In this document: positions 50,018-55,370 of the stretch, piece by piece
Layout of the letters: each line of letters begins with the position of its first letter
Position numbering within the stretch: the stretch's first letter is position 1
Position numbers and translations under genes: made by a program
Virus record (IMG/VR): IMGVR_UViG_2687453619_000001
Span: 1-64,000 of that record
Direction: 5' to 3' (one strand)
Length of the DNA stretch: 64,000 bases
DNA from: a virus
Taxonomy: Duplodnaviria > Caudoviricetes
The notes under the pieces: generated by a model
Database searches by the model: none
What the model was told of the DNA's origin: nothing
What the model saw: only the letters and a program-made list of their open reading frames with translations

Positions 50018-50944
50018 ATGTCAGCGCTGGTTCTAGAACTGCAACGTGAGGCTTTGAACGCAACTGGTAGTGTGTCTAATCTACTTCGCATGGCCTACAC
50101 GGTAGCTCGTAAGCTTGATATTGCGGACTTTGAAGAGTGGATTGACTCTGAGCTAAATGGCTACAAGAGTGCTACCGCTATTCCTCCCTATCGCATGTTA
50201 CGCGGGTCGCTAAGAGCACGGAATCCGTACAATGGCTGGATTCCCCTGTATGTTCAAAGTACAAAGGACGCTGAGCTTTTTTCAAAACGCTCTACTGGTC
50301 AATCTATTGGTGAGCTGGAAAGCCTGTTGTCAGGTGATAAAGGAAATTCCGGCGAGCTCATCGTGTATTTTTCGGCAGAAATGGAAAAAATGCTGATGGC
50401 GGGAATGTCAGGCCCAAGTATGCAACCGGCTCTCATGGTTATGAAGTCGCAAGTTAAAGGAATCATTGAAATTGTACGTAATACTGTTTTGGAATGGTCG
50501 TTGAAACTGGAAAAAGCCGGGGTCTTGGGACAGGATATGACATTTTCTAGCGACGAAAAAGCGCGAGCTACTGCAGCTCCCATTTCATATCAGGTTCAGA
50601 ATCAGACCGTGATTCACAGCATGAATCAGTCACAGTTTCAACAGGGAACGACAGATTCCGTGCAGGCAATTGTGCAACAGCCGCTAGACGTGTCGGCAAT
50701 CGCCGATATAGTTAAAGAGCTTCGAACTCATCTAGATTCATTCAACCTGGACAAAGCGACACACGAAGAGGTCCTAGCGGATATTGCTACCATTGAAGCT
50801 CAACAAGGTTCCCCAAAGCCCCGAGCTGGGATTATTAAAGAAACGCTACGAAGCGTTCGCACAGTATTGGAAAGTACGATTAGCAATGCAGCAGGAACTG
50901 CATTGCCTGGTATTTTAGAGAAAATTGGGGGACTACTTTCATAA
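50018..50944 (+). CDS. AbiTii-domain protein (moron)
   Basis: LVLELQREAL....VSNLLRMAY.VARKL....FEEWI.SELNGY....IP.YR signature. Confidence 0.8.
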   Translation: MSALVLELQREALNATGSVSNLLRMAYTVARKLDIADFEEWIDSELNGYKSATAIPPYRMLRGSLRARNPYNGWIPLYVQSTKDAELFSKRSTGQSIGELESLLSGDKGNSGELIVYFSAEMEKMLMAGMSGPSMQPALMVMKSQVKGIIEIVRNTVLEWSLKLEKAGVLGQDMTFSSDEKARATAAPISYQVQNQTVIHSMNQSQFQQGTTDSVQAIVQQPLDVSAIADIVKELRTHLDSFNLDKATHEEVLADIATIEAQQGSPKPRAGIIKETLRSVRTVLESTISNAAGTALPGILEKIGGLLS

Positions 50945-51037
50945 TCTGTCTCACTAACGATACTGTTTGGTCGAAATGATTGAAAGCTGAGCTGCATTTT
51001 CTATCGTTAGGATGGCCTTTACCAACAGGGGGAAGCT

Positions 51038-51775
51038 ATGTATTTTCATATCACGGGCACAAATGTGCGGTTGCTTGGTTCTGTGCATGTGTTTCCCCAA
51101 GCTAGACCGGATTTACCAACTTGGGTATCAGATGCATATGAATGGTCTGAATCTCTTGTCTTTGAATCAGACCCACCGACATTGCTACCCTTCTTTAAAG
51201 CGCAAGATGGCGTCGCGCTATCACAGAAGGTGCCCGCAAATATCTATGCTGAACTGGAAAAATTTTGGCCGCCTGAAGGTCCGCTTTCGCCTCTTAACGA
51301 ATTGCAACCTTGGGCTGCAATGTTGGTCGCGTCAATGTTTCACATGCAAATGGCTGAGGGGGTAGATACCCGTTTTTTTCGATCGGCGACCGAACAATCA
51401 AAGGCAATTCATTTTTTGGAAACGGCGCAGGATGTGGCGCTAGCATTTGGCTCGATTCCTTTAGTCGAGATACACGCAGGCCTTAAGGAGCTCGTTTCTG
51501 ATTTATCTGAACCTCAACGCGTGTTTACGAACATGCACAATGCTTGGCTTACGCGTGATGTAGAAGCACTTTGGCTCGTTGCAAGTAAATTACCCATAAT
51601 GAAATCTCAGGGAGCCCGGAACGCGGTGTTCGACTTTCGGAATCAAGCATGGGCACCTGTGATTCAACAGATGCTCGGAACTACTAAACGGACTCTTGTC
51701 GTTGTGGGGGCGCTCCATCTATGTGGCCCTGGTAATCTTATCGACAGGCTTGGGCATAATGTTGAACAGGTTTAA
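51038..51775 (+). CDS. TraB/GumN-family protein
   Basis: LLGSVH, LVFE, GVD, LET, RN..W and VVVGALHL.G motifs. Confidence 0.82.
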   Translation: MYFHITGTNVRLLGSVHVFPQARPDLPTWVSDAYEWSESLVFESDPPTLLPFFKAQDGVALSQKVPANIYAELEKFWPPEGPLSPLNELQPWAAMLVASMFHMQMAEGVDTRFFRSATEQSKAIHFLETAQDVALAFGSIPLVEIHAGLKELVSDLSEPQRVFTNMHNAWLTRDVEALWLVASKLPIMKSQGARNAVFDFRNQAWAPVIQQMLGTTKRTLVVVGALHLCGPGNLIDRLGHNVEQV

Positions 51776-51809
51776 CCATTTGGATGACCTCCTTGTAAGG
51801 AGCTAAAAA

Positions 51810-51833
51810 AAGGGACGCCAGTCGGCGTCCCTT
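51810..51833. terminator. terminator hairpin, left copy of the IS target duplication
   Basis: AAGGGACGCC-AGTC-GGCGTCCCTT preceded by an A-tract. Confidence 0.75.
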
Positions 51834-53399
51834 CAGGTTGCTGACGAACCCACCATTTTTGGTGGGTTTTATTTTTTGTGGTGTGAGTTACTCTGCGAGA
51901 CTAAAAAACAGGCGATCGGCAGAGGAAGGCGTCATGCAAGAGGAAATGGCGCATCAAGGTGTATATGCGGTCGAACTGGACGTTTAAAGAAGCTAAAAGC
52001 CGCGCCAGCAGCAGCGCGATCTTCTTCATATTCTGGCAAGCAGCTCCCAACAGGCACTGCTCCATGACTTTGCGTAGTCCGCGCATGCGGGCGTAACGAT
52101 GGCAATGCAATTGCTTGGCGTCGGCAAAGCTGCGCTCTACCGTTTCCTTGCGCCGAGCATAAATACGCTTGCCCCATTCGGTAAGGCGCCTGGCGTTGAC
52201 CGCTTCCTTGGCGCGCTCCCATACGTGCCGCACCACGACCTTCACGCCATTGGCGCTGTTGGTGCATTGTGTGCGCACAGGGCATCGCTGGCAGACGGCC
52301 GCGTTCGATTTGTATTCGCGATAACCGATCCGGTTAGTCGTATTGTAGGGCAGCGCCTGACCTTGCGGACAGATGTACTCGTTGCGATACGCGTCATACT
52401 GGTATTGGCGTTTGTAGAAGGTCCCCGGTTTATGGTTGGGCGTGCGATACCCCATGATCCCGGCAATGCCGCGTTGTTCCAGTCCTTGGCATACCGCCGG
52501 CGTGAAGTAACCAGCATCCAGGCCCACCGCACTGACGGGAAAGCCAAAGTGGTGGCGTTGTCGGTCCAGTCGCCCCAGATACGGCACGCTGTCGTGTACC
52601 GACGCTGGCGTCGCATAGGTATCGGTGATGATGGCGTGCTTGGCGTCCACCGTACGGTGATCCAGGTAAAAGAACCCTTTCGGCTTGTCGTCACGCACCA
52701 TGTAGCCGCTCTCAGGATCGGTGCGGCTGATCTTGATTTCCTTGGTCGGCGGCGTATCGTCGTCATCCCGCTTGAGCTGCTTCTTGCCATGCGCGGCACG
52801 GTCGGTATCCACAGCCGCATCGAGCTCGGCCAAATAGGTCGAGGGCGTTTGCTGCACTGTCACCACATCAAACTTACCCTTGTTGGCATTGGCCTTCAGG
52901 TGGGTGCTGTCGGTGTACAACACGCGGCCATCGACCATGCCTCGGCCCATCGCCTGGCGTACGATCTCATCGAAGATGGCCTGATACACTGTGGTGTCGG
53001 TGAAGCGCCGACGCCGGTTCTGCGAGAACGTCGAGGCGTCCGGTACCTTGTCGGTGAGGCGGAAACCGGCAAACCAACGATAAGCCACGTTCACTTGTAC
53101 TTCGCGCATCAACTGCCGCTCGCTGCGTACGCCAAACAGATAGCCAATGAACAACAGCTTGAATAGCACTACCGGATCGAGCGCCGGGCGGCCGTTATCG
53201 GCGCAGTACAGGTGCGCTACCTTCGCACGGATAAACTCAAAGTCGACCGCGGCAGCGATCTTGCGTAACAGATGATCACTGGGTACCAGACTCTCCAGTG
53301 TCACCATCTCCAGCTCGTGCTGGTACGGGGCAGGGATTTTTAGCATGCTCCCATTATAGAAAAAGCCTTCCAACTTCGGAAGGCTTTGTCAGCAACCTG
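51834..53399 (-). mobile_element. IS1182-family insertion sequence
   Basis: terminal inverted repeats CAGGTTGCTGAC / GTCAGCAACCTG; 24-bp flanking direct repeat; single transposase. Confidence 0.9.
51901..53346 (-). CDS. IS1182-family DDE transposase
   Basis: LVP.DH.LRKI, GRPA.DP, SER.L, DSTHLKANA, LDAGY and VERSFADAK motifs. Confidence 0.92.
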   Translation of the reverse strand: MLKIPAPYQHELEMVTLESLVPSDHLLRKIAAAVDFEFIRAKVAHLYCADNGRPALDPVVLFKLLFIGYLFGVRSERQLMREVQVNVAYRWFAGFRLTDKVPDASTFSQNRRRRFTDTTVYQAIFDEIVRQAMGRGMVDGRVLYTDSTHLKANANKGKFDVVTVQQTPSTYLAELDAAVDTDRAAHGKKQLKRDDDDTPPTKEIKISRTDPESGYMVRDDKPKGFFYLDHRTVDAKHAIITDTYATPASVHDSVPYLGRLDRQRHHFGFPVSAVGLDAGYFTPAVCQGLEQRGIAGIMGYRTPNHKPGTFYKRQYQYDAYRNEYICPQGQALPYNTTNRIGYREYKSNAAVCQRCPVRTQCTNSANGVKVVVRHVWERAKEAVNARRLTEWGKRIYARRKETVERSFADAKQLHCHRYARMRGLRKVMEQCLLGAACQNMKKIALLLARLLASLNVQFDRIYTLMRHFLLHDAFLCRSPVF

Positions 53400-53428
53400 A
53401 AGGGACGCCAGTCGGCGTCCCTTTTTTT
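53400..53428. terminator. terminator hairpin, right copy
   Basis: AAGGGACGCC-AGTC-GGCGTCCC followed by T7. Confidence 0.75.
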
Positions 53429-53446
53429 AGATTGATGCGGCGTACT

Positions 53447-54289
53447 CTACATTGATCTGATCAGGTGTTCAGCGATCCACTGCGCGACTTGCGGCACAAC
53501 GGCGTTTCCGGCAGCATGAGTTTCTGCAAAGTTGGCCGCATCCAGTCCGCTGCAAAGCCCATGATCGTCAATCGTTCGCTGCCTGTGAGCCATCTGATCC
53601 CAGCCGTCGGCGGCAGCGATGAGGCCCGTACCGCTGATATTGATCTGCGCTGATGAACTCCCTGATAGAAGGGTAGGATATGCCCATGCGGCGATTTCGA
53701 CGGGGTATTCTGCCGGGCGCGGCGGGCCTGAAAAAGTTCCCACTGGAGCGGCGTCAGCCAGCAGCTCAAAGGGAGGGTGTCTGCCAAGACCTGCGACCAA
53801 GAAAATTCTGCGGCGACGCGTGGGGACTCCGAAATATTGAGCATTAAGCACTCGCCAGCATCCCAGATACCCGCATTCGGCAAGGGCAGCGATGACTGTC
53901 TGGAAGTCTTCGCCATTGTTGCTATTGAGGAGCCCCGTGACGTTCTCAAGCACCAGCCATTGGGGCCGAAGCTCGTTGATGATGCGGATGACCTCGAAGA
54001 AGAGGCCGGTGCGGCTACCGGCGAGTCCGCGGCGCTTACCCATGGCGCTGACGTCCTGGCAGGGGAATCCCCCGGTGATGACATCGACCGGGCTGAGATT
54101 GGCCGCGCCGCAGAGCCGGACGTCGTTGTATTGCGTGGCTTGTGGAAAGCGGTCCCGGAGGACCGCCCTGCAGGTGGGGTCGATTTCGACTTGCCATGAG
54201 GTGGTAAAGCCTGCTTGTTCAAATCCGAGATCGAATCCGCCGATGCCGGCGAACAGACTACCGATGGTTGGTTTTTGCTTGACATACAT
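53447..54289 (-). CDS. DNA cytosine-5 methyltransferase, alpha polypeptide (motifs I-VIII and X)
   Basis: SLFAGIGG, GGFPCQD, LENV, RRRRIF and GNAVVP present; no motif IX in this frame. Confidence 0.9.
   Translation of the reverse strand: MYVKQKPTIGSLFAGIGGFDLGFEQAGFTTSWQVEIDPTCRAVLRDRFPQATQYNDVRLCGAANLSPVDVITGGFPCQDVSAMGKRRGLAGSRTGLFFEVIRIINELRPQWLVLENVTGLLNSNNGEDFQTVIAALAECGYLGCWRVLNAQYFGVPTRRRRIFLVAGLGRHPPFELLADAAPVGTFSGPPRPAEYPVEIAAWAYPTLLSGSSSAQINISGTGLIAAADGWDQMAHRQRTIDDHGLCSGLDAANFAETHAAGNAVVPQVAQWIAEHLIRSM
53461..54285 (-). CDS. nested alternative-frame beta polypeptide of the C5 methyltransferase (motif IX); exact start uncertain
   Basis: 274-codon same-strand ORF inside the alpha gene containing IRWLTGSERLTIMGFAADW. 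Confidence 0.75.
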   Translation of the reverse strand: MSSKNQPSVVCSPASADSISDLNKQALPPHGKSKSTPPAGRSSGTAFHKPRNTTTSGSAARPISARSMSSPGDSPARTSAPWVSAADSPVAAPASSSRSSASSTSFGPNGWCLRTSRGSSIATMAKTSRQSSLPLPNAGIWDAGECLMLNISESPRVAAEFSWSQVLADTLPLSCWLTPLQWELFQARRARQNTPSKSPHGHILPFYQGVHQRRSISAVRASSLPPTAGIRWLTGSERLTIMGFAADWMRPTLQKLMLPETPLCRKSRSGSLNT

Positions 54290-54446
54290 GAGAGCCCAAT
54301 TGGTCAGATGCTCGATGGCATACTGGTGCGGGGCGCATGGCCCTCAAGTGATTTAGTGTGCCGCAACGTGGGCATTTGATGGAGAGGGCGATGTATTCAC
54401 CCTCGCCGAGCTTACGAGAACAATTACCACAACGAATATCTTGCAT
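54258..54446 (-). CDS. com: Com-family zinc-finger regulator (copy 2)
   Basis: IRCGNCSRKL...IKCPRCGTLN; overlaps the methyltransferase starts. Confidence 0.85.
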   Translation of the reverse strand: MQDIRCGNCSRKLGEGEYIALSIKCPRCGTLNHLRAMRPAPVCHRASDQLGSHVCQAKTNHR

Positions 54447-54628
54447 CTAGGTATACCTGCATAAATATGCTAGGCTTCGGGCCGCCTGTGCACAGGTGGC
54501 GCGGCCCTGGGCCTTGCTTGCAGCCTCATCTGCAGGTACGGTGGTGTGGTCGGTGTTAGTAGCACTGACCGCGTCGCCGCGTCTTAACTCGTACTTTCTC
54601 ACGCGCACGCGGCCTGCGAAACTGCGAC

Positions 54629-54655
54629 AGGGTTGATAAGCCGCTTATCAACCCT
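54629..54655. promoter_or_regulatory. dyad upstream of gene V (copy 2)
   Basis: AGGGTTGATAAG-CCG-CTTATCAACCCT. Confidence 0.6.
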
Positions 54656-54689
54656 CTGCCAGGTGCGCACAGATCTTCAACACGGCAAC

Positions 54690-55370
54690 ATGCTCAGCAT
54701 GACTGCCGAACTCCCCGACTACTCCGAAAACGCACGACTGCTGCACAACCTGATTCGTTTGGGTACTGTTGCTCAGGTTGCGGGTGGCCGCGCCCGTGTG
54801 CGTCTGAGTCCCAAGCTGACAACAACCTGGTTGCGCTGGGTGACGCAACGTGCAGGCGACGCCCGCACCTGGTGGTCCCCATCGGTCGGGGAGCAGGTTG
54901 TTCTGTTGTCGCCTGGCGGCGATCTGACCGCCGGCGTCATTCTGCAGGCGGTCTATTCTGATGCGTTCCCTGCGCCTTCCGACAATCCGGCCTTGCATTC
55001 GACGCATTACCCCGATGGTGCGGTTGTCCAATACGATTTTCAGGCGCACACCCTGAGCGCAACGCTACCGGACGGCACCAGCGTGACCGTCGCGCCCGGT
55101 AAAGTCACCTCGAACGCCGAAGATACGGAATGCACCGGCAACCTGCTGGTGCAAAAAAATCTGGTCGTCAATCAGAACCTGACCGTCAACGGCATGTCGG
55201 CCTTGAATGCCGGCATGAACGTCCAGGCCGGCAGCAAAGGCGGTGCGGCGGCTGTGATCCAGGGGATCTTGCGCGCTACTGAAGACGTTATCGCCGGCGC
55301 CATCAGCCTAGTTAAACACCCGCACGGTGGCGTCAAAAAGGGCGAAGACGAATCAGGTGGTCCAAAATGA
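54690..55370 (+). CDS. baseplate spike gpV (copy 2)
   Basis: paralog of 11929-12609. Confidence 0.92.
   Translation: MLSMTAELPDYSENARLLHNLIRLGTVAQVAGGRARVRLSPKLTTTWLRWVTQRAGDARTWWSPSVGEQVVLLSPGGDLTAGVILQAVYSDAFPAPSDNPALHSTHYPDGAVVQYDFQAHTLSATLPDGTSVTVAPGKVTSNAEDTECTGNLLVQKNLVVNQNLTVNGMSALNAGMNVQAGSKGGAAAVIQGILRATEDVIAGAISLVKHPHGGVKKGEDESGGPK

Follow-up and report, generated by a model that had tools for sequence, protein, structure and literature searches.

A candidate two-subunit C5 cytosine methyltransferase encoded in fully overlapping, Com-linked reading frames of a P2-like prophage

The window, that is, the whole stretch of DNA analysed here, comprises 64,000 nucleotides (nt) of the tailed-virus record IMGVR_UViG_2687453619_000001 (Caudoviricetes) and contains, overlapping the 3' end of the regulator gene com, a C5 cytosine methyltransferase gene whose DNA is open in two frames, both conserved among relatives. 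Frame A encodes the protein recognizable as a methyltransferase (alpha); frame B, shifted by +1, contains the motif IX that is missing from alpha. This locus is read here as a Com-controlled orphan prophage enzyme of the EcoHK31I type, for which two polypeptides would be made from one DNA and the second of them (beta) would most likely start at an AUG 4 nt past that of alpha (probability roughly 0.6). That a separately translated frame-B product is needed for activity appears very probable from the comparative data. The principle is known from M.EcoHK31I; what is new here is the fully overlapping, Com-linked, orphan and phage-borne version.

Both methyltransferase frames and com lie on the minus strand of the window, a point on which the preliminary description of this DNA was silent and which was taken from the open reading frame (ORF) listing. 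The coordinates are collected in Table 1. The description had claimed two fully overlapping frames with ATGTATG starts inside the 3' end of com, a region of three-frame overlap, and a second same-strand frame that stays open for 274 codons (53461-54285) and contains a typical motif IX, IRWLTGSERLTIMGFAADW; all of these are present. The start region reads CTCATGTATGTCAAGC as the reverse complement, with the A and B ATGs 4 nt apart and both within the 3' end of com. The ORF coordinates place the overlap of all three frames at 54258-54285, and com covers the first 32 nt of alpha.

Table 1. Features of the methyltransferase locus, in window coordinates
Feature	Position	Strand	Remarks
Alpha ORF, frame A	53447..54289	-	280 aa, ATG start
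Frame B ORF, candidate long beta	53461..54285	-	274 codons, ATG start, +1 relative to frame A
com	54258..54446	-	62-aa zinc-ribbon translational regulator, frame C; PF10122 E 1.2e-17, phrog_6417
Tandem starts ATGTATG	54283..54289	-	alpha AUG, then frame-B AUG 4 nt on
Conserved beta core	53506..53958	-	frame B residues ~110-260; homologous to residues 11-112 of the EcoHK31I-type E. coli beta, then motif IX
Motif IX in frame B, IRWLTGSERLTIMGFAADW	53542..53598	-	Trp codon TGG over frame A Leu-Asp (CTGGAT)
Internal frame-B ATG, B residue 124	53914..53916	-	would yield a 151-aa beta; Shine-Dalgarno sequence weak
Internal frame-B ATG, B residue 148	53842..53844	-	would yield a 127-aa beta; kept in 25/33 clade members
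Candidate Com-binding hairpin AUGC-CAUCGA-GCAU with CC(N)3GAG	54308..54321	-	ends 19 nt upstream of the alpha AUG

Alpha possesses in a single polypeptide the motifs by which C5 DNA methyltransferases are recognized, namely I (FAGIGG), IV (GFPCQ), VI (ENV), VIII (QYFGVPTRRRR) and X (GNAV), together with a short target-recognition domain (TRD) of ~60 residues that includes PTLL. The motif names follow the standard nomenclature of C5 methyltransferases, in which motif IX has the spacing R-x-L-T-x-x-E...Q/M-G-F-P. Frame A matched the Pfam family PF00145 (DNA_methylase; E 1.2e-57) with residues 9-167 on profile positions 3-161 of 324, and likewise only the first half of TIGR00675 (E 1e-51), both matches exceeding the curated cut-offs. 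The alignment of alpha with M.HhaI covers residues 16-171 (E 7.7e-33) and is followed by a weak match to motif X. A canonical motif IX was not found in alpha, where the profile match ends at position 161 of 324, and comparison with a profile of canonical relatives (hhalign) gave an end-to-end alignment with an 11-column gap at LQGFPDxWT. The translation, the half-profile matches and this gap bear out the earlier assignment to alpha of motifs I to VIII and X without motif IX.

Frame B has no match in Pfam, NCBIfam or PHROG, and a beta profile compared with PDB sequences returned chance Fab matches only (E 0.18). Taken alone, frame B of the window contains only its terminal stop, against 3.7 +/- 1.4 expected in synonymous-codon shuffles, a weak departure (P = 0.05). 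The comparison set consisted of the DNA of relatives, taken from genome contigs and viral contigs. More than 6000 database proteins are alpha-like, and the best 120 are all 272-299 aa long with 60-100% identity. The frame-B motif IX is present in the window and in all 23 full-length genome homologues (57-68% identity), which come from Pseudomonas, Neisseria, Kingella, Chromobacterium, Burkholderiaceae, Variovorax, and metagenome-assembled genomes of Verrucomicrobia and Kiritimatiellaeota; in these 24 genes frame B reads G[IV]RWLSGxExLxxMGFxxDWMRPT. After viral contigs had been added, the motif was found in 33 of 33 genes of the clade.

The same 24 genes keep frame B open for 252-284 codons and have 7-21 stops per gene in frame C. 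No frame-B stop occurs between A codons 113 and 262, where 61 are expected (1000 shuffles, minimum 41), and between codons 14 and 112 there are 12 against 58 expected, all 12 being one TAG inside motif I of Pseudomonas-type genes. The shuffle null is calibrated by canonical in-frame relatives, which carry about the expected number of +1 stops. An interruption of the beta frame in close homologues had been named in the preliminary description as an observation that would count against it; between motif I and motif VI, however, not one +1 stop was found in the 33 window-clade genes, whereas 38 in-frame relatives have a mean of 2.05 over this span and only 5 of them are free of stops. With the relatives included, the openness of frame B is decisively beyond chance; from the window alone it is barely so.

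Constraint on the sequence of frame B was examined through synonymous-codon identity, defined as codon identity given an identical alpha residue, in eight sequence pairs, which stand for about six independent lineages, as two of them share close relatives. This identity is 0.58 over A codons 14-112, 0.77 over 116-195, 0.60 over 196-220, 0.90 over 221-255 and 0.56 over 258-280, and the value for codons 221-255 lies above that for 14-112 in all eight pairs. Over codons 221-255 the mean amino-acid identity is also higher in frame B than in frame A (0.75 vs 0.59), again in 8/8 pairs, and sliding windows over all 24 genes give the same pattern of constraint. The constrained part of frame B is a core of B residues ~110-195 and ~220-260 with a free linker between them, preceded by a 5' part that is free in sequence but kept open; its first ~110 residues are of low complexity (72% S/P/A/T/G/R). 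Stops are depleted, and silent changes in frame A become scarce exactly over the conserved parts of frame B; frame B is thus maintained by selection, which keeps it open and conserved and damps synonymous change in alpha.

A further segment of frame B, residues 174-187 (~53725-53766, minus strand; SCWLTPLQWELFQ), resembles the LTPxE part of motif IX. It has 60% identity over 10 residues to the canonical LTPLECERLQ, which alone is not significant, and is nearly invariant in the clade as (S)CWLTPxQW.

An enzyme with motif IX on a second polypeptide is known in M.EcoHK31I, the original report of which is said to be that of Lee, Kam and Shaw in 1995. According to two later papers, this enzyme of E. 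coli HK31 (YGGCCR) is a C5 methyltransferase composed of an alpha subunit with motifs I-VIII, X and the TRD and a beta subunit with motif IX, which is encoded in another frame inside alpha; both subunits are needed, and the N-terminal part of beta drives association with alpha (PMC2836561, PMC3404938). The preliminary description had likewise given it as a heterodimer with motif IX on a beta encoded in an alternative frame inside alpha. Alpha alone is inactive in vivo once the beta start and Met 17/26 are removed, these internal methionines can act as starts, the first 42 residues of beta are dispensable in vitro, and the enzyme is active when its subunits are expressed from two separate genes (PMC2836561).

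The E. coli genomes gave no DNA match to the window gene. Copies 95-99% identical to a relative (L037) are present in 81 of the 5426 complete genomes of this species, and in the copy examined (L162 3042-3971) the 309-aa alpha coding sequence is convergent with a gene for a NotI-family restriction endonuclease. The +1 ORF of this locus, read from its first ATG, encodes 176 aa with ATG at positions 1, 17 and 26 and contains RRMLPSEYERLQGFPENWT; no beta was annotated by PGAP in either of the two E. coli records inspected. The locus fits the published description of M.EcoHK31I. When both frames of the window, as had been suggested, were aligned to this EcoHK31I-type enzyme, alpha was found to be 50% identical to the E. 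coli alpha over the first 173 aa, which include motifs I-VIII (E 5e-60), and unalignable beyond residue 173. Frame B residues 109-216 aligned with the E. coli beta at its residues 11-112, with 36% identity in 110 aa (E 7e-12). Part of the latter similarity follows from that of alpha, as the same DNA encodes both. The E. coli restriction-modification (R-M) locus is flanked by IS1 and IS3 copies and integrase fragments.

Along the window gene, canonical relatives match frame A first (to nt ~507-666), then frame B in motif IX (their PEGRVRRLTPLETERLQGFPEDWTMP, for instance, against nt 680-757), and frame A once more in motif X (nt 739-840). Profile comparison of beta with the canonical family (hhalign) aligned motif IX over 28 columns (E 0.0013). 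The family survey covered 109 full-length methyltransferase ORFs, being all fetched loci and the window, and is biased toward relatives of the window protein; motif IX lies in +1 in 66 of these, in frame in 38 and in +2 in none, and was undetected in 5. On a quick tree the +1 type forms at least four well-supported clades, with in-frame genes interspersed and the deep nodes weak. These are the clade of the window, the RRMLPSECERLQGFP clade, which includes a relative of the EcoHK31I-like E. coli locus, a cyanobacterial/Terriglobia RNLTWTEWERLMGFP clade and an actinobacterial WVEWLMGFP clade. Four divergent clades, with alpha identities as low as 33-38%, retain the canonical R-x-L-x-x-x-E-x-L-x-x-M/Q-G-F-x-x-x-W in their +1 frame. 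The Trp codon of motif IX coincides with an alpha [LVM]-Asp (NTGGAY) placed 6-11 residues before motif X in 66 of 68 genes of the +1 type; the distance from this Trp to motif X is 14-33 residues in the in-frame relatives. The shared register of TGG over NTGGAY is read as favouring one ancestral rearrangement as the origin of the +1 type, and a single +1 clade was not rejected by the approximately unbiased (AU) test (p 0.10).

The expectation that gene callers would normally miss beta is matched by the databases, in which only 58 beta-like proteins stand against the more than 6000 alpha-like ones. Those frame-B proteins that have been called are mostly long, with at least 255 aa in 23 of the 36 best representatives. 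In a sample of a Pseudomonas-centred family the beta core occurs in at least 5 of 401 genomes, four times at full length with open frames of 265-304 aa; nine candidates were scored per genome, hence the count is a lower bound. The literature searched yielded no account of this arrangement as a family-wide or Com-linked one.

Loci of other clades vary in the form of the +1 ORF. The actinobacterial-type loci (L039, L053, L061, L065, L072, L136-L151), a clade of their own, carry (L)NPTWVEWLMGFPLGWT in the +1 frame and lack com. Their +1 ORFs are open over nearly the whole gene, as in L053 (codons 2-370) and in L065, where GAAGGAGGGG precedes the ATG; this openness is less telling because of the high GC content. 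In L035-L064, of the RRMLPSECERLQGFP clade, the +1 ORF opens at alpha codon ~77-112, often at a GTG with the Shine-Dalgarno (SD) sequence AAAGGAGG or TGGAGGGA, which is formed by the alpha K-R-K-G-L-E-G codons between motifs IV and V. Five long database proteins (P0253, P0257, P0237, P0245 and P0235) give weak matches to the beta profile; their N-terminal part resembles the beta core, that is, the +1 reading of motifs VI-VIII, and for their C-terminal part the match to PF00145 is confined to the motif IX-X end. Frame-mixed gene calling may account for them, or they may represent a methyltransferase split in another way. Their interpretation as a separate beta-like domain was set aside in favour of frame-mixed calls, as they are +1 readings joined to a methyltransferase C-terminal part.

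Two arrangements at the 5' end of frame B are found in the clade of the window. ATGNATG is present in 13 of the 33 genes, the window among them, and GGAGG or GGGGG with a frame-B ATG inside motif I in 17, one gene having both. At least one of the two is thus present in 29 genes; another two have an ATG 7 nt after that of alpha, which brings to 31 of 33 the genes with a frame-B ATG within the first ~20 codons, and two have neither. In the Pseudomonas-type loci (L005-L013, L015, L017, L025, L081-L083) com shares the frame of beta and terminates within motif I, at a TAG built of rare codons (GGC ATA GGA GGC TTT GAT G). These rare codons create AGGAGG five nt before the beta ATG, and the SD duplex there has -9.5 to -11.1 kcal/mol, the gene-wide mean being near -2.5. 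Some Pseudomonas-type loci have, 4 nt upstream of the alpha ATG, another ATG from which the third frame is open for 17 codons, up to a TGATG that includes the beta start. For the E. coli prototype-like locus, the beta start is the first ATG in the open +1 frame. The frame open back to its 5' end, the frame-B ATG near the alpha start and the first-ATG start of the prototype-like locus together favour the 5' AUG, which is rather likely the main start of the frame-B product.

The product of com matches Zn_ribbon_Com and a PHROG of translational regulators (Table 1). A com-like ORF was found by tblastn directly upstream of the methyltransferase in 21 of 80 genome loci, comprising 20 of the 28 closest and L033, and none was found upstream of loci in other +1 clades. 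Within com, 19-32 nt upstream of the alpha AUG, lies the hairpin AUGCCAUCGAGCAU (54308-54321), the sole match in the window against 0.10 expected. Across 17 loci it has a 4-bp stem and a 6-nt loop with 91% of cells paired, compensatory changes occur in three of the four pairs, and its covariation beats 500 of 500 shuffles, values to be read with the shortness of the stem and the relatedness of the sequences in mind. Because this element overlaps coding sequence of com, its conservation could in part reflect the Com protein. The loop motif CC(N)2-3GAG is present in 16 of the 17 sequences. In phage Mu, Com recognises CC(N)2-3GAG in a hexaloop hairpin beside a structure in which the mom start is hidden (PMC6483171). 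In 5 of 17 relatives the tandem start AUGGAUGCUC could pair with the 3' arm of the hairpin by complementarity, which suggests a switch and would also supply a second reason for keeping the second AUG. A scan of 53300-54750 for promoters and terminators gave nothing above shuffle levels. Control by Com of a shared initiation region, as proposed in the preliminary description, is plausible, given com in 20 of the 28 closest loci, the hairpin with the Com motif and the 5' frame-B ATG in 31 of 33 genes.

The following course of events is proposed. Alpha would contribute motif X and the target-recognition region as well as motifs I-VIII for S-adenosylmethionine binding and catalysis, and beta would supply motif IX after a segment of ~100 residues that in EcoHK31I mediates association with alpha; the two would assemble into the active enzyme. 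Beta would be translated from the AUG 4 nt downstream of that of alpha and would have 274 aa, of which the first ~100, unconstrained and probably disordered, would form a leader. One ribosome-loading region would launch both subunits, and Com would gate it through the CC(N)2-3GAG hairpin just upstream. Late in infection the enzyme would methylate phage DNA and shield it from host restriction.

Against this stands, above all, the possibility that the same two-subunit enzyme is formed with a beta of 127-151 aa made only from internal starts (B124, B148 or the equivalent of position 140), the open 5' part being untranslated. This is judged rather unlikely, but several points weigh on its side. 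Constraint on the frame-B sequence begins only at A codon ~110-116, the first ~110 codons being no more alike in frame B than in frame C, which fits a free leader and equally fits no translation if stop depletion is otherwise caused. The EcoHK31I-type beta aligns only from window B residue 109 on. Internal ATGs at B124, the B140 equivalent and B148 are present in 11, 28 and 25 of the 33 clade genes, with at least one in every gene; EcoHK31I itself tolerates internal beta starts (PMC2836561). The 5' SD of the window is weak (-2.4 kcal/mol). Two further points count against the proposed scheme itself: RNA pairing may be part of the reason why the second ATG of ATGNATGC is conserved, since 5 of 17 sequences have it complementary to the hairpin 3' arm, and the minimum free energy structure pairs the start region of the window no better than shuffles do (z -0.83). 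Internal starts, however, leave unexplained why frame B has no stop from motif I to motif VI in any of the 33 genes, against the mean of 2.05 in in-frame relatives and ~58 in shuffles, and why 31 of 33 carry a frame-B ATG so near the alpha start, with a very strong SD in the Pseudomonas type. The SD scores of the internal ATGs are ordinary, most of them no stronger than -4.6, with the 5th percentile of the background near -6.5. Two cautions apply to the proposed two-subunit reading as a whole: the 24-33 genes compared are related and not independent, representing roughly six lineages, and the equation of the E. coli locus with EcoHK31I rests on lengths and Met positions and not on a label.

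Readings without a second subunit fare much worse. Frame B might be untranslated, its pattern being either a relic or a side effect of constraints that act on alpha or the nucleic acid, with alpha alone forming the enzyme and its residues 233-250 serving as a degenerate motif IX. The invariant frame-A residues across the overlap (M233, R236, G244, G248, D250) may point to such an in-frame substitute, and the hhalign match of alpha with canonical enzymes runs end to end. This reading is nevertheless very improbable in view of the higher identity of frame B over codons 221-255 in all eight pairs, the synonymous identity of 0.90 there and the retention of the +1 motif IX in four divergent clades; a relic would decay and gain stops, and the prototype EcoHK31I alpha is inactive in vivo without beta (PMC2836561). 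Still less probable is ribosomal frameshifting by +1 into frame B before motif IX and then back into frame A, yielding one polypeptide with all ten motifs. It would suit the A-B-A order colinear with canonical enzymes, but it needs two programmed shifts, and no shift site stood out, though no search aimed at shift sites was made; it does not account for the conserved frame-B segment of ~100 residues before motif IX or for a frame open to the 5' end, and EcoHK31I works from two separately expressed genes (PMC2836561). Least of all is an artefact or pseudogene to be expected, that is, a canonical gene broken by two compensating indels or sequencing errors. A few database proteins are indeed frame-mixed chimeras (P0176-P0178); the same frames and register, however, recur across unrelated assemblies (66 of 68 +1-type genes), and both frames are under purifying selection. 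An artefact of sequencing, a relic frame and a double frameshift were all rejected, and an alpha-beta enzyme with beta started at the 5' AUG remains the preferred reading.

The window lies within a 75-kb provirus record, and the setting of the gene is a P2-like prophage. P2-type late genes around it include those for capsid, small terminase, head completion, endolysin, Rz and tail completion R/S, as well as gpV, W, J, I, fibre, sheath and tube. The methyltransferase occupies an accessory slot between S and V on the opposite strand, with the transposase of an insertion sequence (IS) downstream and com, then gpV, upstream. Among the locus neighbours examined, no nuclease gene adjoins it, and the earlier claim of an orphan, prophage-borne gene with no cognate restriction enzyme nearby agrees with this setting. 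A Peduoviridae Ralstonia phage record contains the same com, hairpin, ATGTATG and stop-free frame B.

Further features lie downstream of the gene. The IS element (51803-53430) encodes a 490-aa DDE transposase (DDE_Tnp_1_6, DUF772) on the minus strand and has inverted repeats of 49 nt (51803-51851 and 53382-53430, 88% complementary); its right end is 17 nt past the alpha stop codon, and the methyltransferase is not interrupted. Between the tail-completion gene S and the IS lies a low-GC island (50018-51775; 0.44-0.48 vs ~0.60 around it). It contains an AbiTii abortive-infection gene (50018-50944; Pfam PF18864, E 2.8e-45; PADLOC AbiTii) and a 245-aa ORF (51038-51775) with no PHROG or PADLOC match, and looks like a defence cargo slot of the prophage.

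A bolder generalization, to which we would give somewhat less than an even chance, is that a single Com-gated loading site with AUGs 4 nt apart yields two proteins from 274 overlapping codons, among the longest conserved same-strand dual coding in phages or bacteria, and that one ancestral rearrangement founded a large superclade, in which most small C5 methyltransferases of phages and R-M systems would work only as heterodimers, with a second subunit that virtually no genome annotation includes. For annotation, the locus means that a probably required subunit of a common phage enzyme is invisible to standard procedures. In practice, synthetic, codon-optimised genes are often used to express such enzymes in methylome-guided cloning and transformation; with alpha recoded, beta would be lost and an inactive enzyme would be expected. 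For the biology of overlapping genes, it provides a natural example of overlap on one strand, deeply conserved, for which the biochemical rationale is known and in which constraint is graded, from a leader that is only kept open through a dual-coding core with a free linker. Clades appear to start beta differently, by tandem AUGs, by a rare-codon SD inside motif I just after the com stop, or at an internal GTG or ATG, and the locus is a tractable system for the origin of overprinted genes and for two frames sharing one initiation region. For phage biology, Com-type translational control would be extended from Mom and adenine methylases to a two-subunit cytosine methyltransferase.

The window enzyme resembles M.EcoHK31I in having motif IX on a second polypeptide, with the same +1 offset and the same register (Trp codon over alpha [LVM]-D), and the beta segment upstream of motif IX is homologous to that of the EcoHK31I-like E. 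coli locus. They differ in that EcoHK31I is part of an R-M pair, whereas the window gene is an orphan on a P2-like prophage with com upstream. The +1 frame of the window is open for 274 of 280 codons, whereas the 176-aa beta of E. coli starts at alpha codon 104 with +1 stops upstream. The TRD of the window, which has no alignment beyond residue 173, is unrelated to that of the E. coli enzyme, and motif IX reads RWL(S/T)GxERLxxMGFxxDW in the window clade and RRMLPSEYERLQGFPENW in EcoHK31I. With the single-chain enzymes M.HhaI and M.HaeIII (PDB 1MHT family, 1DCT), motifs I-VIII align and motif X does so weakly; in these, unlike the window enzyme with its separate motif IX and short TRD, motif IX is in the same polypeptide. 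The two genes of M.AquI are adjacent and do not overlap. M.AquI (CYCGRG) is described as a two-subunit C5 methyltransferase split in the variable region, with motifs IX and X on the small subunit (PMC3404938). Like the window enzyme it is naturally split into two polypeptides; in the window, however, only motif IX is separated and the genes overlap fully.

The regulatory side of the locus resembles com-mom of phage Mu, which also has a small Com zinc ribbon (PF10122), a com 3' end overlapping the start of a DNA-modification gene, and a short CC(N)2-3GAG hairpin just upstream of the regulated start (PMC6483171). Unlike in Mu, a structure burying the start is not demonstrable for the window (z -0.83). 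The Burkholderia P2-like phage KS5 is reported to encode Com and an N4/N6 methylase (gp21/gp20; PMC3091744). In KS5 and Mu, as in the window, com and a modification gene occupy a late-expressed accessory slot of a P2-like or Mu-like phage (PMC3091744, PMC6483171). The regulated gene, however, is Mom in Mu and an N6/N4 methylase in KS5, whereas in the window it is a C5 cytosine methyltransferase with two overlapping frames.

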